This document shows positions 3,911 through 57,667 of a stretch of 64,000 nucleotides of DNA, piece after piece. Each line of letters starts with the position of its first letter. Positions within the stretch are counted from its first letter, which is position 1. Below the pieces are notes generated by a model that saw only the letters and a program-made list of their open reading frames with translations, was not told the DNA's origin and did not search any database. The DNA is from Alphaproteobacteria bacterium. GTDB taxonomy: Bacteria; Pseudomonadota; Alphaproteobacteria; Rickettsiales; 21-14-0-20-44-7. Made by a program: the position numbers and the translations under genes. Location of the stretch: contig JAYVPI010000016.1 of NCBI GenBank assembly GCA_043757405.1, positions 143,623-207,622 of the forward strand, written 5' to 3'.

Positions 3911-3920
3911 AATTTATACT

Positions 3921-4009
3921 CCGTCATCCTGAGCAACGCGAAGGATCTTTCGCTTGCGCCGTCAAGTTTTGAGTATGCGAAAGATCCTTCGCGTTGCTCA
4001 GGATGACGG
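3921..4009. repeat. MITE-like palindromic element, CGTCAT-terminus family
   Basis: Perfect 33-bp inverted repeat, verified base by base: CCGTCATCCTGAGCAACGCGAAGGATCTTTCGC (3921-3953) pairs with GCGAAAGATCCTTCGCGTTGCTCAGGATGACGG (3977-4009). The loop is 23 nt. It lies between sspB and ctaB. Confidence 0.85.
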
Positions 4010-4034
4010 CTAGATTGAGTGTTTGGGGCGAAAA

Positions 4035-8747: not shown

Positions 8748-8827
8748 CTGTCATCCCGCACTTGTTGCGGGACCTATTGCAAGATTCGGTATATGTAAAT
8801 AGACCCCTCAATAAGTGCGGGGCGACG
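8748..8827. repeat. MITE-like element, CGTCA(C/T)CCCGCACTTGTTGCGGG subfamily
   Basis: CTGTCATCCCGCACTTGTTGCGGGA ... CCCCTCAATAAGTGCGGGGCGACG are imperfect inverted arms. The same arm sequence occurs at 13306 and 27371. Confidence 0.75.
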
Positions 8828-8844
8828 TTCCTGAGGGCTATGCC

Positions 8845-9437: not shown

Positions 9438-9520
9438 TGTCATTCCCGCGCAGGCGGGGATTTTTGCCGGTGTCGATTGTGAAACCATCTGCCAAGATTC
9501 CCGCCTGCGCGGGAATGACA
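9438..9520. repeat. MITE-like element with ATTCCC-N8-GGGAAT type arms
   Basis: TGTCATTCCCGCGCAGGCGGGGA ... TCCCGCCTGCGCGGGAATGACA are near-perfect inverted arms. Each arm is itself a small hairpin. The element lies between the aspartic protease gene and sdhB. Confidence 0.8.
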
Positions 9521-11430: not shown

Positions 11431-13287
11431 TCAATAAGTCCGCTTCTTCGCCGGAACCACCTCACACTCATCAGTCAGCGTATACATATGCACCGGCCGG
11501 TAATCGATTTTATGGCTGCCCTTGTCGTCCAGCCAGCAGATTGAGTGTTTTTGCCAGTTTTTGTCGTCGCGTTCCGGGTAGTCTTCGTGGGCGTGGGCGC
11601 CGCGGGATTCGTGGCGGTTTTCGGCGCAGACGATTGTTACCAGGGCTTGGTCGCGCAAGTTGTCCAGTTCCAGCGCTTCCATCAGGTCGCTGTTCCAGAT
11701 CATGCCGCGATCGGTGGTTTTGATGTCGCTGAAAGCGCTGTGGATTTTTTGCATTTTGGCGACGCCTTCTTTTAAACTTTCAGCAGTGCGGAAAACGGCG
11801 GCGTGTTGTTGCATGGTTTTTTGCATGCTTAAACGCAAATCTGCGGTTGGCACTGCGCCGTTGGCGTGGCGGATTTTATCGAATCTTGCCATGGCTTTGT
11901 CACTGCAATTTTTCGGGAGATCGCGATTTTTTTGGCCAGGTTTGATGATTTCCTTGGCGCGGATGGCGGCGGCGCGGCCAAAGACTACCAGGTCGAGGAG
12001 GGAATTGGAGCCGAGGCGGTTGGCACCGTGGACAGAGACGCAGGCGGCTTCACCGATGGCCATCAGGCCCGGGACTATTTCACCGTCGGATGACCCGCCC
12101 CCGGCCCCTCCCTGAGGGAGGGGGGAAGATAAGCCTCCTCCATCAGGGAGGAGGTTGGAGGAGGGTTTTTTGGTCATGACTTCGCCGTGGACATTAGTGG
12201 GGACGCCGCCCATGTTGTAATGTACGGTGGGGAGAACTGGGATTGGTTGTTTGGTGACGTCTACTCCGGCAAAGATTTTGGCGGATTCAGAAATTCCGGG
12301 GAGGCGTTCGTGCAGGATTGCCGGGTCGAGATGGTCGAGGTGTAAGAAGATATGGTCTTTATGTTCGCCGACGCCACGGCCTTCGCGGATTTCCATGGTC
12401 ATCGAGCGGGAGACGACATCGCGTGAGGCTAAATCTTTGGCGTTTGGCGCGTAGCGTTCCATGAAGCGTTCGCCGTTCGAGTTCACTAAATATCCGCCTT
12501 CGCCGCGCGCGCCTTCGGTGATTAAGCAGCCAGCGCCATAAATTCCGGTGGGGTGGAACTGGACGAATTCCATATCTTGTAATGGCAGCCCAGCGCGAAG
12601 GGCCATACCGCCGCCGTCGCCGGTGCAGGTGTGGGCGGAAGTTGCGGAGAAATAGGCGCGGCCATAGCCGCCGGTAGCATTGACGACCATTTTGGCGTTG
12701 AAGCGGTGGATGGAGCCATCATCAAGGCACCAGGCGATGACGCCGACGCATTCGCCTTCGTCATTCATGATGTAATCAAGTGCGAAATATTCGATGAAGA
12801 ATTTGGCTTTGTGTTTTAAGGATTGTTGGTAAAGCGTGTGCAAGATTGCGTGGCCGGTTCTGTCAGCCGCGGCGCAAGTGCGCTGGGCGGTGCCTTTGCC
12901 GTAATCAGTGGTCATACCGCCGAATGGGCGCTGGTAGATTTTGCCTTCCGGAGTGCGGGAGAATGGGACGCCATAATGTTCCAGCTCGATGATCGCGGCG
13001 GGGGCGCTTTGCACCATATATTGGATTGCATCCTGGTCGCCAAGCCAGTCGGAGCCTTTGACGGTGTCGTACATGTGGAAGCGCCAGTCATCCGCGCCCA
13101 TATTGCCAAGCGCGGCAGAAATTCCGCCTTGCGCGGCGACGGTGTGGGAGCGGGTGGGGAAAAGTTTGGTGATGCACGCGGTGCGGAGGCCAGCTTGCGC
13201 CATGCCGAACGTGGCACGAAGCCCAGCGCCACCGGCACCGACTACTACGACGTCATATTCGTGATCGATGATGTTATATGCGGTCAT
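11431..13287 (-). CDS. sdhA: Succinate dehydrogenase flavoprotein subunit, with a 24-aa in-frame repeat-derived insertion
   Basis: Trimmed to [23 protein letters not shown]. The FAD-attachment motif [10 protein letters not shown] and the motif [27 protein letters not shown] are present. The track ORF starts 8 codons further upstream. Confidence 0.95.
12094..12165. repeat. In-frame palindromic insertion inside sdhA (RPE-like)
   Basis: 72 nt encode [24 protein letters not shown]. The DNA contains the hairpins CCCCTCCCTGAGGGAGGGG and CCTCCTCCATCAGGGAGGAGG, related to the element inside murA. Confidence 0.7.
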
Positions 13288-13305
13288 TCTTTCTTCATTC
13301 CTACA

Positions 13306-13425
13306 CGTCACCCCGCACTTGTTGCGGGGTCTGGTTCAAGTGGCACCGGCTTACATGCTGCGCTAATCATCCTTCGCCAAGGCTTCGGATGGCAGGCCGG
13401 ATCGCGCAACAAGTGCGCGATGACG
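13306..13425. repeat. MITE-like element, same subfamily as 27282-27371 in opposite orientation
   Basis: CGTCACCCCGCACTTGTTGCGGGGTCTGGTTCAAGTGGCACCG... ends with ...CCGGATCGCGCAACAAGTGCGCGATGACG. The reverse complement of 27282-27371 aligns along most of its length. This copy carries about 29 extra bp. Confidence 0.8.
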
Positions 13426-13491
13426 AATATTATTCATGTAATATTAAATGTGAAGTGATTTTATGCGAATGGTGTTGAATTGAGTTTTTAA

Positions 13492-25930: not shown

Positions 25931-27271
25931 TTATACCTTCACTCTAACAATATCCGCACCCAACCCCTGCAAGCGGCGGGCGATTTTTTCGTAGCCGCGG
26001 TCGATGTGGTAGACGCGGGTGATTTTGGTTTCGCCTTCGGCGGCGAGGGCGGCGATTACGAGGGAGAAGGAGGCGCGGAGGTCGGTGGCCATTACCTCGG
26101 CGGCGTTTAGTTTTTCGATGCCGGTGACGATTGCGGTGTTGCCGGTGACTTTGATTTTTGCGCCCATTCTTGAGAGTTCGGGAACGTGCATGAAGCGGTT
26201 TTCGAAGATGGTTTCCTCAATTTTGCTAATCCCGGTGGCCAGTGTCATCAAAGTCATGAATTGTGCCTGCATATCGGTGGGGAATCCGGGATATGGTTCG
26301 GTGATAATGTTAATTGATTTTATTTCTTTGGGTTTTTTTACGCGCAAGCCATGCGCGGTTTTTTCGACATAAACTCCGGCTTCTTCGAATTTGTGGAGGA
26401 CGGCGCCTAAGTGGTCGGCGTTGGCGTTTATAAGTTCGATTTCGCCGCCGGTGATGGCGGATGCGGCGATGAAGCTGCCGGTTTCGATACGGTCGGCGAC
26501 GGTGGTGTGTTCGGCCCCGTTCAAAGTTTCGACGCCTTGGATGGTGATGCGGTTAGTGCCGATGCCGGTGATTTTGGCGCCCATCTTTATCAAACATTCG
26601 CATAAGTCGGTGATTTCTGGCTCTTGCGCGGCGTTATTTAAAACAGTTTCGCCTTTTGCCAAAGTTGCGGCCATCAATATATTTTCAGTGGCGCCGACGG
26701 AAACTTTTTCAAAAAATATTTCAGCAGCTTTCAGTTTTTTGCATTTGGCGATGACATAGCCGTCGGTAATTTCGATTTCTGCGCCCATTTTTTCCAGTGC
26801 TTTCAAATGTAGATCAACCGGCCGGGAGCCGATGGCGCAGCCGCCGGGGAGGGAGACTTTGGCCTGGCCGAAACGCGCAAGCAATGGGCCGAGGACGATA
26901 ATGGAGGCGCGCATTAGTTTCACCAATTCATATGGCGCGGTAAGGTCGGTGATGTTGTCGGCTTGGAGGCGCAATGAATTCTCCTCTCCCTCAGGGAGAG
27001 GTTGGGAGAGGGTTGGTTGTTGTGAGCTGAGAGTTTCCAACCCTCCGCCCAACCTCCTCCCTGAGGGAGGAGGGGAAGAAATTTTTACGCCGTGATGGAC
27101 AAGCAAGCGCGACATGGTGGTGATATCGGCGAGTTGTGGGATGTTGTGCAGAATGAGAGGTTTATCAGTGAGCAGCGCGGCACACATAAGTTTCAGCGCG
27201 GAGTTTTTAGCGCCGCCGATTTTGACCCGTCCTTTTAGTGGAGTGCCGCCTTTGATAATTAGGGAGTCCAT
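25931..27271 (-). CDS. murA: UDP-N-acetylglucosamine 1-carboxyvinyltransferase, with a 33-aa in-frame repeat-derived insertion
   Basis: The MurA sequence is recognisable (GGAKNSALKLMCAALL, KLMRASIIVLGPLLARFG, GGCAIGSRPVDLHLKALE) but is interrupted by [33 protein letters not shown]. Confidence 0.95.
   Translation of the reverse strand: MDSLIIKGGTPLKGRVKIGGAKNSALKLMCAALLTDKPLILHNIPQLADITTMSRLLVHHGVKISSPPPSGRRLGGGLETLSSQQPTLSQPLPEGEENSLRLQADNITDLTAPYELVKLMRASIIVLGPLLARFGQAKVSLPGGCAIGSRPVDLHLKALEKMGAEIEITDGYVIAKCKKLKAAEIFFEKVSVGATENILMAATLAKGETVLNNAAQEPEITDLCECLIKMGAKITGIGTNRITIQGVETLNGAEHTTVADRIETGSFIAASAITGGEIELINANADHLGAVLHKFEEAGVYVEKTAHGLRVKKPKEIKSINIITEPYPGFPTDMQAQFMTLMTLATGISKIEETIFENRFMHVPELSRMGAKIKVTGNTAIVTGIEKLNAAEVMATDLRASFSLVIAALAAEGETKITRVYHIDRGYEKIARRLQGLGADIVRVKV
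26981..27079. repeat. In-frame palindromic insertion inside murA (RPE-like)
   Basis: A 99-nt imperfect palindrome reads CCTCTCCCTCAGGGAGAGG TTGGGAGAGGGTTGG ... CCAACCCTCCGCCCAA CCTCCTCCCTGAGGGAGGAGG. There is no stop in the murA frame, and the element is related to 12094-12165. Confidence 0.75.
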
Positions 27272-27281
27272 TTTAAATCCT

Positions 27282-27371
27282 CGTCATCGCGGACTTGTTC
27301 CGCGATCTGGTTAGCGAAGCATGAAAGACGGTGCCACTTGAACCAGACCCCGTGACAAGCACGGGGTGACG
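27282..27371. repeat. MITE-like element between pheA and murA
   Basis: CGTCATCGCGGACTTGTTCCGCGATCTGG ... CCAGACCCCGTGACAAGCACGGGGTGACG. This is the reverse-orientation relative of 13306-13425. Confidence 0.8.
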
Positions 27372-27388
27372 TTGTGAGGGTGTGGACA

Positions 27389-28228
27389 TTATTTCTTAAA
27401 CCGCTCCGGATCCGCAGCATAAACGCCTAACAACTTTACCTTTTTGGTAAAGAAGCCGAGTTCCTCTAATGCATATTGCACATTTCGCTGTTTCGGGTGG
27501 CCCTGGAAGCTGATGAAGAAATCGGCGTTGTCGGATTTGCCGCCTGGAATATAGCTTTCGAGTTTTACCAGGTTGACGTTGTTGGTGGCGAAGCCGCCTA
27601 AGGATTTGTAGAGGGCGGCGGGCATGTTGCGGATGGTTACCAGCAAGGTGGTGATGGTGGTTTGTTCGTCTTTTGGCTCGACTGGTTCTTTGCCGATTAC
27701 GATGAATACGGTCATGTTGGTTTGGGCGTCTTCGAAGTTGCGTTTGAGAATATCCAAACCATAGATTTCGGCGGCGAGTTCGGAGCCGATTGCGGCGCGG
27801 GCGGGGTTTTTCTCAGTGCCAATGGTCTGGGCGGCCAGCGCCGTGTTTTCGGCGTTTTTAGCCACTAACCCCAATTTCTGGATGTTTTTCTTGCATTGCA
27901 TCAGGGCCATTGGATGCGAGAGAACTTCTTTAACAGCTTCAATTTTGGCGCCTTTGGGGGCCATCAGGAAATGCTCGACGCGCTGGAAATGCTCGGCGAC
28001 GATGTGGAGGTTGGTTTCCACTAATATATTATGTACTTCCGCGACCCGGCCGGCATAAGAGTTTTCGATCGGAATCATCCCAAGTTCGGCGTGTCCGCTT
28101 TCCACGGCCTCGAAAACCTCGTCGAAAGTCGGGCAGGCGAGGGTGTCCATATATGGGTATGCCTTGCGGCAGGCCAAATCGGAATGTGCGCCTTGTGCGC
28201 CTTGGAAAGCTATAATGTTCTTAGTCAT
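27389..28228 (-). CDS. pheA: Prephenate dehydratase
   Basis: The PDT domain (IAFQGAQGAHSDLA, IPIENSYAGRV) is followed by a C-terminal ACT domain (TTLLVTIRNMPAALYKSLGGFA, LVKLESYIPGG). Confidence 0.9.
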   Translation of the reverse strand: MTKNIIAFQGAQGAHSDLACRKAYPYMDTLACPTFDEVFEAVESGHAELGMIPIENSYAGRVAEVHNILVETNLHIVAEHFQRVEHFLMAPKGAKIEAVKEVLSHPMALMQCKKNIQKLGLVAKNAENTALAAQTIGTEKNPARAAIGSELAAEIYGLDILKRNFEDAQTNMTVFIVIGKEPVEPKDEQTTITTLLVTIRNMPAALYKSLGGFATNNVNLVKLESYIPGGKSDNADFFISFQGHPKQRNVQYALEELGFFTKKVKLLGVYAADPERFKK

Positions 28229-28321
28229 TAGTCATTAGTCATAAGTCATTAGGAAATTGTTTTCAACTCAACAGTTATAATTTATAGTATCTAATGACCA
28301 ATGACTAATGACTAATAACTA
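28222..28321. repeat. Inverted pair of 4x tandem heptamers (ATGACTA) bracketing the pheA/nadK divergent region
   Basis: The left arm at 28222-28252 is TAGTCAT x3 + AAGTCAT + TAG. The right arm at 28291-28321 is CTA + ATGACCA ATGACTA ATGACTA ATAACTA. The arms match 28/31 as inverted repeats, with a 38-nt AT-rich spacer. The pheA ATG is part of the outermost heptamer. Confidence 0.8.
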
Positions 28322-28323
28322 AG

Positions 28324-29103
28324 ATGAAATACAAAAAAATCGCCATAATCGCCGATGATTCGCCCAAAGCGCAGGAAACTGCGGCTCGGCTGAAGTATCT
28401 TTATGACTTTTTGAACCGCGATATCAAGCCGGAAAAAGCGGATTGCGTGGTGGTTTTGGGTGGGGACGGGTTCATGCTGCACTCACTGCACCGGCTGATG
28501 GATTATGATATTCCGGTGTTTGGGATGAATGCGGGGACGATCGGGTTTTTGCTCAATAGTTATAATGAGAAGGATTTGCTGGAACGCATTGAAACCGCGG
28601 AAGAGGCGACTTTGCATCCGCTGGAGATGATCGCGACTTGCGTCGATGGGACGAAGCATTTGAAGCTGGCGGTGAACGAAATTTCATTGCTAAGGGAAAC
28701 TGCTCAAGCCGCCAAAATCCGCGTTAGCGTGGATAATAAAGTGCAGTTGGAAGAGATGATTTGCGACGGGGTGATTGTTTCGACTCCGGCGGGCAGCACA
28801 GCATATAATTTTTCGGCGAACGGGCCGGTGGTGCCTTTGAACTCCAATTTGCTGGCGCTGACGCCAATCAGCGTTTTCCGGCCACGGCGCTGGCGGGGGG
28901 CGTTGTTGCCATCAAATAAGGTAATATCGCTGGATATACTGGAAGTGGCGAAACGGCCGGTTTCGGCAGTGGCGGATTTCTACGAGATTCGTGACGTGGT
29001 CGAGGTGCATATCCGCGAGGAACGCAAGAAAACCATGCGGATTCTCTTCGATTCCCACAATTCGTTGCACGAGCGGATTATTAAGGAGCAATTTATTCTT
29101 TGA
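28324..29103 (+). CDS. nadK: NAD kinase
   Basis: The motifs VVVLGGDGFMLH, NEISL and DGVIVSTPAGSTAYNFSANGP are present. Confidence 0.9.
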   Translation: MKYKKIAIIADDSPKAQETAARLKYLYDFLNRDIKPEKADCVVVLGGDGFMLHSLHRLMDYDIPVFGMNAGTIGFLLNSYNEKDLLERIETAEEATLHPLEMIATCVDGTKHLKLAVNEISLLRETAQAAKIRVSVDNKVQLEEMICDGVIVSTPAGSTAYNFSANGPVVPLNSNLLALTPISVFRPRRWRGALLPSNKVISLDILEVAKRPVSAVADFYEIRDVVEVHIREERKKTMRILFDSHNSLHERIIKEQFIL

Positions 29104-57637: not shown

Positions 57638-57667
57638 CCGTCATTGCGGGCTTGACCCGCAATGACA
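57638..57667 (+). terminator. Hairpin (single-arm CGTCAT-family unit) followed by a T-run, candidate intrinsic terminator
   Basis: The 11-bp stem of GTCATTGCGGG-CTTG-ACCCGCAATGAC is followed by AATATTTTTTATTT, 5 nt after the phaC-like stop. Confidence 0.5.

Follow-up and report, generated by a model that had tools for sequence, protein, structure and literature searches.

An in-frame palindromic repeat of BoxC/PIT-like architecture in an alphaproteobacterial murA gene, probably a dispersed element translated as a tolerated loop

Results

An in-frame insert in murA

The stretch of DNA analysed here (the window) comprises 64,000 nucleotides of an Alphaproteobacteria bacterium (Rickettsiales, 21-14-0-20-44-7; GenBank assembly GCA_043757405.1, contig JAYVPI010000016.1, positions 143,623 to 207,622 of the forward strand). 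It carries murA, and inside the codons of this gene lies a 99-nt palindromic segment, which is the subject of this report. The features at the locus are as follows.

25931..27271, minus strand: host gene murA (UDP-N-acetylglucosamine 1-carboxyvinyltransferase), 446 amino acids (aa), from the open reading frame list and PDB matches
26981..27079, minus strand: 99-nt segment, codons 65-97 of murA, holding the whole palindromic dimer and a few flanking codons
26990..27073, minus strand: net insertion as best estimated, 84 nt or 28 codons, from codon comparison with loci L085 (protein P0002) and L086 (protein P0003)

The murA reading frame is intact, its best PDB match is MurA (E = 1e-140, phmmer), and the catalytic Cys is retained in a GGCAIG motif. 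Every phmmer alignment to the solved MurA structures in the PDB showed a gap from query residue 65 to about residue 96-99. The nine nearest MurA homologs (P0002-P0007, P0009, P0010 and P0016), with 82-70% aligned identity and 418-423 aa, were all without the insert. The P0002 and P0003 loci are syntenic with the window (NAD kinase, prephenate dehydratase, murA, COQ7 and a Sel1 protein), and the interval from VKIS to NSLRL spans 32 residues in the window MurA versus 4 in these orthologs (SAGE in P0002, ESGE in P0003), so murA has gained a net 28 codons (84 nt), and not 33 codons. An initial annotation of this DNA, made from the sequence alone, had described an insertion of 33 aa; its absence from orthologs was borne out by the alignment, while its size was reduced to a net 28 aa. 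The ends of the inserted DNA are blurred by several bases because the palindrome continues into the flanks (AATTTCTTCC ... GGAGAATTC).

The 99-nt segment has no stop in the murA frame, and three of its six frames are open. Its sequence, coordinates and frame agreed with what had been annotated, namely a palindrome with a length that is a multiple of three, in frame and stop-free in murA. The GC content was 0.61 in the murA element, 0.52 in the rest of murA and 0.48 in the window.

Unit architecture of the murA element and of a second copy in sdhA

Folded as RNA, the murA palindrome (121-nt region) reached -69.6 kcal/mol, a value that none of 200 dinucleotide shuffles equalled (-37.9 ± 4.3; z = -7.46), and folded as DNA it gave z = -7.64, in line with the long imperfect palindrome annotated initially. 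The long hairpin of the element has about 38 paired positions and a 20-nt loop, and its parts are listed below.

26983..27016, plus strand: unit 1, self-complementary hairpin CCTCTCCCTCAGGGAGAGG (26983-27001) and G-rich tail TTGGGAGAGGGTTGG (27002-27016); three-block, Watson-Crick 8/8, mirror 8/8
27017..27036, no strand: spacer TTGTTGTGAGCTGAGAGTTT, 20 nt, the loop of the long hairpin, from folding and copy comparison
27037..27073, minus strand: unit 2, inverted, tail complement CCAACCCTCCGCCCAA (27037-27052) and hairpin CCTCCTCCCTGAGGGAGGAGG (27053-27073); Watson-Crick 9/9, mirror 8/9

The core CCCTSAGGGAGRRGG, searched with at most 2 mismatches, had eight matches in the window against 0.27 expected by chance. 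Each hairpin being counted once per strand, the eight matches amount to four hairpins; murA and sdhA have two each, and the rest of the window has none. The sdhA hairpins (gene at 11431-13311, minus strand) belong to a second dimer of the same family, which is also in frame.

12093..12167, minus strand: second dimer of the family, in frame in sdhA, from orthologs and the block test
12093-12104, tail'
12105-12123, hairpin A
12124-12133, linker
12134-12154, hairpin B
12155-12167, tail

The net insertion in sdhA is 23 codons or 69 nt (about 12097-12165), which neither orthologs of up to 91% identity nor solved SdhA structures contain; with its shared hairpin core it matches the related in-frame sdhA element that had been annotated. 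Its unit arrangement (tail'-hairpin ... hairpin-tail) is opposite to that of the murA copy. In both the murA and the sdhA element, a CCTCTCCC/CCCCTCCC-type unit is paired in inverted orientation with one of CCTCCTCCC type. In the SdhA lineages P0125 and P0140, unrelated-looking extra residues were observed at the same loop as the sdhA insert.

Each unit is made up of a pyrimidine (C-rich) block, a loop of 2-3 nt, a Watson-Crick complementary purine block, again a loop of 2-3 nt, and a mirror purine block. Counted over the four window units, the Watson-Crick pairing was 8/8, 9/9, 8/9 and 8/8, and the mirror pairing 8/8, 8/9, 9/9 and 6/8. Three of the four fall within the published definition of an ITxF intrastrand triplex, with stems of at least 8 nt, at most 1 mismatch, loops of 1-6 nt and three consecutive blocks (PMC4666352). 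BoxC, which is the same as PIT and TM_ECO, is a G/C-rich intrastrand-triplex motif with the consensus CCCTCNCCC-N3-6-GGGNGAGGG-N3-GGGNGAGGG (PMC4666352). There are 3610 copies of it in 262 proteobacterial genomes, and it is abundant in cyanobacteria (Holder et al. 2015, PMC4666352). In E. coli K-12 there are 23 copies, all intergenic, five as inverted pairs of two unit types, and the repeats have no link to transposons, phages or plasmids but are associated with local genome rearrangement (PMC4666352).

Judged from its sequence, the murA element is a dimer of two inverted BoxC/PIT/TM-like units. The likeness to BoxC/PIT/TM repeats lies in the three-block unit, the frequent inverted pairs of slightly different unit types and the lack of an associated transposase, whereas both window copies and many of those in relatives are inside genes, in contrast to the intergenic copies of E. 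coli K-12. The window units were 2-5 edits away from the TM_ECO consensus when loops were relaxed, and 4-7 substitutions away with strict loop lengths. The element had no match in 5,426 E. coli genomes (blastn; the low-complexity filter may contribute to this). Because of these 2-5 edits and the lack of an E. coli blastn match, we call the units BoxC-like, on the strength of their architecture, and do not count them as TM_ECO in the strict sense; this BoxC/PIT/'TM' architecture gives the family a name, with triplex formation being putative. Nowhere in the 64 kb did an Rfam family reach its gathering score, and the element gave only generic sub-threshold microRNA-hairpin matches, indicating that it is not a known structured RNA. 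A promoter and terminator scan showed no promoter- or terminator-like signal at the murA element.

Copies in other genes and genomes

A unit pattern derived from the window, CTCCCTSAGGGAG-N3-4-TTGG-N4-5-GGGTT, was scanned in a species-representative genome collection and matched 82 loci. Exact TM_ECO fits among these matches came from Enterobacter, Buttiauxella, Microcoleus, Dehalococcoidia, Gallionella, Bradyrhizobium and others, and one Enterobacter match lies in what we take to be the malE-malF spacer, with MalF named from its N-terminal sequence. Closely similar unit matches of about 30 nt were also observed, besides Proteobacteria, in Planctomycetota (Phycisphaerales), Dehalococcoidia, Bacteroidetes and cyanobacteria.

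About two dozen matching contigs belong to one metagenome-assembled genome (MAG), CAZJFC01 ('uncultured Rickettsiales bacterium'), in which the dimers show both the murA-type and the sdhA-type architecture. Its loci hold 28 element clusters, of which six are in frame in Pfam-supported genes and the rest are intergenic or ambiguous. The six in-frame sites lie in PrmA, a class I aminoacyl-tRNA synthetase (aaRS; IleS-like, two sites), BioB, a BioF-like aminotransferase and MurA. The prmA, IleS-like, bioB and bioF genes are not present in the 64-kb window (tblastn).

A metagenome scan with a 25-mer gave two loci. On the metagenome contig L088, the copy at 2266-2360 is identical to the murA element at 78 of 95 positions and lies in frame in an HI0933-family flavoprotein, whose alignment to PDB 3v76 is gapped there. 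It was also observed that the arms of L088 2266-2360 and of window 26981-27073 match best in one orientation and the spacer cores TGTGAGCTGAGAG and TGTGAACTGAGAAG in the opposite one, so that the loop is inverted relative to the arms between the two copies; such a flip-flop of the loop is what one would predict if the arms recombined with each other or if a hairpin intermediate was involved.

Outside the lineage of the window, single BoxC-like units were found in frame in Pfam-supported genes at L016 2117-3664, L019 471-1934, L011 3256-4734 and L040 1519-6258, a set that encodes peptidase U32 (two Gallionella), GlyS beta (Allosphingosinicella) and an Lhr helicase (unclassified proteobacterium). 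The search of relatives that the initial annotation had proposed turned up in-frame copies in various unrelated housekeeping genes. Each intragenic copy that was verified has a 3n length and no stop, and each of the two window elements is open in three of six frames. Among the palindromes checked against long open frames, the BoxC-like family gave the only in-frame inserts in identified genes. The element had no match in PLSDB plasmids (blastn) and viral contigs had 0 pattern matches, so there was no sign of phage or plasmid carriage.

These copies also bear on a possible assembly or sequencing artefact, that is, a chimeric or fold-back read in the contig. Palindromes can come from fold-back, and the source is a metagenome-type assembly; however, an artefact would not be expected to keep the frame and avoid stops in two essential genes, independent assemblies of other projects carry the family in frame in other genes, and every unit fits a known natural repeat architecture. 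We consider an artefact hardly credible.

The insert is predicted to form a disordered loop at a length-variable site of MurA

An AlphaFold2 model of the window MurA was built from a 120-sequence alignment, with a mean predicted local distance difference test (pLDDT) score of 92 and a predicted TM-score (pTM) of 0.91. Residues 66-99 were modelled as coil between strands 63-65 and 100-103, with pLDDT below 50 for residues 72-93, and outside the insert the pLDDT was above 90. Superposed on 5u4h, the model gave a TM-score of 0.97 and a root-mean-square deviation of 1.4 Å (Foldseek). According to this model, the insert is a disordered loop on an otherwise intact MurA fold, which agrees with the surface-loop location proposed from the sequence.

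In the PDB alignments, the turn matching E. coli MurA residues 65-68 is replaced by the insert, and this region is presumably the solvent-exposed Asn67-Gly68 hairpin turn of enterobacterial MurA. The insert peptide (about 28 residues) is rich in Pro, Gly and Ser. Among 117 insert-free homologs, the loop was the only strongly length-variable internal site of MurA, with 0-17 extra residues (sd 4.4), and the next most variable site had 0-4 extra residues. The stretch around the loop spans 17-35 residues in the alphaproteobacterial MurA examined.

Inserts recur at one MurA site in separate lineages

Two further MurA proteins have inserts at the same site.

L083 4386-5801: P0008 MurA, 471 aa, from CAZJFC01; about 50 aa added after the Ser65 codon; locus syntenic with the window
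L084 8001-9386: P0022 MurA, 461 aa, from another alphaproteobacterial MAG; about 30 aa added after the Ser65 codon

Both inserts consist of the same kind of hairpin units as in the window, differing in sequence and length, and the P0008 insert has two extra hairpin modules appended. In a neighbour-joining MurA tree (414 gap-free columns, 200 bootstraps), the window MurA grouped with the insert-free P0002 and P0003 in 198 of 200 replicates, P0008 grouped with the insert-free P0006, P0007 and P0009 in all 200, and P0022 fell in another clade. The window MurA and P0008 were sisters in 0 of 200 replicates. Because the tree never paired these two and placed insert-free relatives beside each, the inserts appear to be three independent acquisitions, or else to reflect many independent losses.

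The occurrence of the same segment in MurA of distant taxa had been named at the outset as a sign of an ancestral loop, and by this tree the inserts in other lineages are independent of the one in the window. A native loop, ancestral or lineage-specific and palindromic by accident with no insertion at all, would draw on the natural length variation at this alphaproteobacterial MurA loop and on the long loops in two other lineages. Nevertheless, it is missing from all nine nearest homologs, the three long loops are non-sister in the tree, and the near-perfect inverted repeat has 82% identity with the copy in an unrelated gene (L088) and is shared with the sdhA units. We regard a native loop as extremely improbable.

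The threefold recurrence is sufficiently explained by the loop itself, because it is uniquely indel-tolerant in MurA. Another explanation would be targeted integration, in which an enzyme or replication-fork template switching would have a DNA preference for the murA site and the recurrence reflects target choice. The Ser codon before the insert is TCT in three of three filled murA sites and AGC in two of two empty sites read. Targeted integration is favoured by three independent inserts that begin directly after the same Ser65 codon, by the TCT after (A/C)TT in all three as opposed to AGC in both empty orthologs, and by the flanks, which extend the palindrome and resemble GAAGAAAAT, the sequence following hairpin A in intergenic MAG copies. 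On the other hand, the TCT codon may itself derive from the element, the status of the loop as the only length-variable MurA site suffices for the recurrence, and the murA, sdhA, prmA, aaRS and HI0933 sites share no target motif or target-site duplication. In addition, no RAYT-like gene was found by tblastn in the window or the MAG loci, although this search used an approximate query and is weak. Taken together, targeted integration seems unlikely, though worth keeping in view.

The recurrence has some practical meaning. The same permissive MurA hairpin turn took three inserts of 28-50 residues, which makes it a site for loop engineering or tagging, and since MurA is an antibiotic target, the recurrence of inserts at one loop offers a clean natural experiment.

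The murA segment is probably a dispersed repeat that is translated and tolerated

In our judgement, the murA segment is very probably a dispersed selfish or neutral palindromic repeat that is translated and tolerated. A copy of an inverted BoxC/PIT-like dimer would have inserted into the codons of the solvent-exposed MurA beta-hairpin turn, the ribosome would read straight through the 84-nt insert, and MurA would gain a disordered loop of about 28 residues with its fold unaffected. Read-through is suggested by the net gain of 84 nt and the stop-free murA frame, and bypass or excision would not need an insert in an essential gene to be 3n and stop-free; the insert peptide is accordingly expected to be made. 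Ribosomal bypassing and RNA-level removal were considered and rejected as unnecessary, every verified intragenic copy being 3n and stop-free. The element is most likely without function for MurA, and would be neutral or slightly deleterious. Its persistence can be put down to a survivorship filter, by which only 3n, stop-free insertions into permissive loops survive in an essential gene. As a guess, copies might spread by hairpin or single-strand DNA insertion or by template switching, with no target-site duplication and possibly catalysed in trans.

Several points weigh against this interpretation. Within the 64 kb of the window there are just two copies, each inside a gene, and no intergenic one. 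No target-site duplication or common target motif was found across the murA, sdhA, prmA, aaRS and HI0933 sites, and no transposase in the window or the MAG loci examined, so that the description of the element as mobile is drawn from its distribution. Three inserts at exactly one codon boundary could also reflect a target preference at the DNA level, and, as regards strict neutrality, a hairpin this stable in the mRNA might alter the expression of murA.

This last point leads to the possibility that the element has been exapted, for stability or translation control of the murA mRNA (an RNase III-type site or a ribosome pause), as a recombination or replication-pause site, or as a functional loop. 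Its extreme stability (-69.6 kcal/mol), the threefold occupation of the MurA site and the tie of TM/BoxC loci to genomic instability in E. coli (PMC4666352) would be in keeping with such a role. However, the element is also present in unrelated genes and intergenic clusters with no common context, the closest relatives are without the insert, no promoter or terminator signal was seen at the site, PIT elements were without promoter or terminator activity in earlier tests (PMC4666352), the peptide is predicted to be disordered, and the three MurA inserts are unlike in length and sequence. A function acquired by the element is therefore quite improbable in our view.

A bolder reading is that BoxC/PIT triplex-hairpin repeats are an actively spreading class that repeatedly writes translated loops into essential enzymes across Proteobacteria through DNA- or structure-guided insertion, as opposed to chance followed by selection. 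The host proteins concerned would be MurA (three times), SdhA, PrmA, the IleS-like synthetase, BioB, BioF, peptidase U32, GlyS and Lhr. If this were true, the repeats would be a general, previously unrecognised generator of protein indels, but we hold it to be doubtful. Read as a dispersed and tolerated repeat, the murA element is a clear example of a known phenomenon and not a new principle.

Comparison with known repeat systems

The behaviour of the murA element is like that of the Rickettsia palindromic elements (RPEs), reportedly described by Ogata et al. in 2000: it is a palindromic repeat that lies in frame and stop-free in unrelated alphaproteobacterial housekeeping genes, is absent from orthologs, sits in a surface loop, and has both intergenic and intragenic copies. 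The initial annotation had drawn this parallel while holding the sequence family to be different, and the parallel was upheld by the in-frame, stop-free and ortholog-absent insert in a surface loop and by the other in-frame copies, with the features that follow pointing to a different family. RPEs are AT-rich, whereas the window family is C/G-rich, with CCCTSAGGG hairpins and G-rich tails, and is set apart from RPEs by this description. The window GC is 0.48, and the host is not low-GC as Rickettsia is. The window element measures about 70-100 nt versus about 150 bp for RPEs (PMC10969869). R. conorii RPE sequences carry a CGTC tag at one end, and RPE-4 and RPE-6 are classed as CGTC repeats (Di Nocera et al. 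2013, PMC3733652), a tag which the ends of the window family lack: neither CGTC nor GTAG was found at the ends of the murA and sdhA elements or of the MAG consensus.

The elements also resemble the GTAG/CGTC REPs (Di Nocera, De Gregorio, Rocco 2013, PMC3733652) as inverted dimers of short palindromic units that form one long stem-loop, but the window units are untagged and have an extra mirror G-block. Intragenic REP dimers that encode 20-30 residues have been described in Opitutus terrae, R. conorii and Thauera, with some genes hit twice (PMC3733652), and RAYTs are discussed in the same paper. A tblastn search with E. coli RayT over the window and 88 loci (730 kb) gave no match in either the window or the related MAG, with the reservation that an approximate query was used and the search is weak.

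REPINs, according to what Bertels and Rainey are said to have reported in 2011, are REP doublets that form hairpins and are mobilised by RAYT transposases. They are essentially extragenic. Like REPINs, the elements studied here consist of two short palindromic units, inverted and set a short spacer apart, that form one long hairpin, and they lack a target-site duplication, but the murA and sdhA elements have no GTAG or CGTC tag and no RAYT gene was seen near any copy examined. With miniature inverted-repeat transposable elements they share arms that are inverted repeats, but there is no flanking direct duplication at the murA, sdhA, prmA, aaRS and HI0933 sites and no related insertion sequence was seen. 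A conceptual parallel is given by long inverted repeats that lie in frame in essential mitochondrial genes of Nematomorpha and are apparently translated (PMC6649704); these differ in belonging to a eukaryotic organelle, in being much longer and perfect, and in their unrelated sequence.

In the literature found, the BoxC/PIT/TM class is described from intergenic sites alone, in-frame translated copies of it were not reported, and the word 'intragenic' is absent from PMC4666352. With the present copies, selfish DNA in genes, a phenomenon of Rickettsia RPEs and tagged REPs, also takes in the BoxC/PIT/TM class, and in-frame copies with empty sites kept in orthologs could help address how these repeats spread. 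They also carry a caution for annotators and structure predictors: where a conserved enzyme of an uncultured alphaproteobacterium shows a low-confidence loop rich in Pro, Gly and Ser, that loop can come from a repeat.

Other repeats in the window

A hairpin finder allowing at most 1 mismatch misses the murA element itself and was used for side observations only. A palindromic element of about 100 nt was seen directly upstream of both murA (27276-27372) and sdhA (13305-13431). It is made of a pair of hairpins with CGTC at their start or end (CGTCATCGCG..CGCGAT and ACCCCG..CGGGGTGACG); where the copies pair up they match at 86-88%, and they lie in opposite orientation relative to their genes. 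It looks like an intergenic head-to-head dimer of the CGTC-tagged REP super-family (PMC3733652). Another intergenic palindrome, at 3920-4010, has two arms of 33 nt (CCGTCATCCTGAGCAACGCGAAGGATCTTTCGC) that are perfectly complementary and lie 23 nt apart, and is of CGTC type and REPIN-like. A similar GATCCTTCGC..CTCAGGATGACG motif flanks a BoxC-like unit in the Bacteroidetes MAG locus L014.

Short intergenic palindromes of GTCATTCCCGCGCAGGCGGG and CGTCATTGCGGGCTTGACCCGCAATGACG type were present at 9438-9520, 50075-50099, 57639-57667 and 8750-8828; we take them to resemble the Neisseria dRS3 and CGTC-1 repeats. With these and the CGTC-type palindromes beside the BoxC-like units, the window holds several distinct palindromic families.

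At 28217-28324, in the divergent spacer between prephenate dehydratase and NAD kinase, there is a heptamer inverted repeat of TAGTCAT/ATGACTA type, with arms of 34 nt that are 91% complementary and 38 nt apart. Over the whole window (1-64000) the GC skew is strongly positive throughout, and the cumulative skew climbs monotonically to +3.1.

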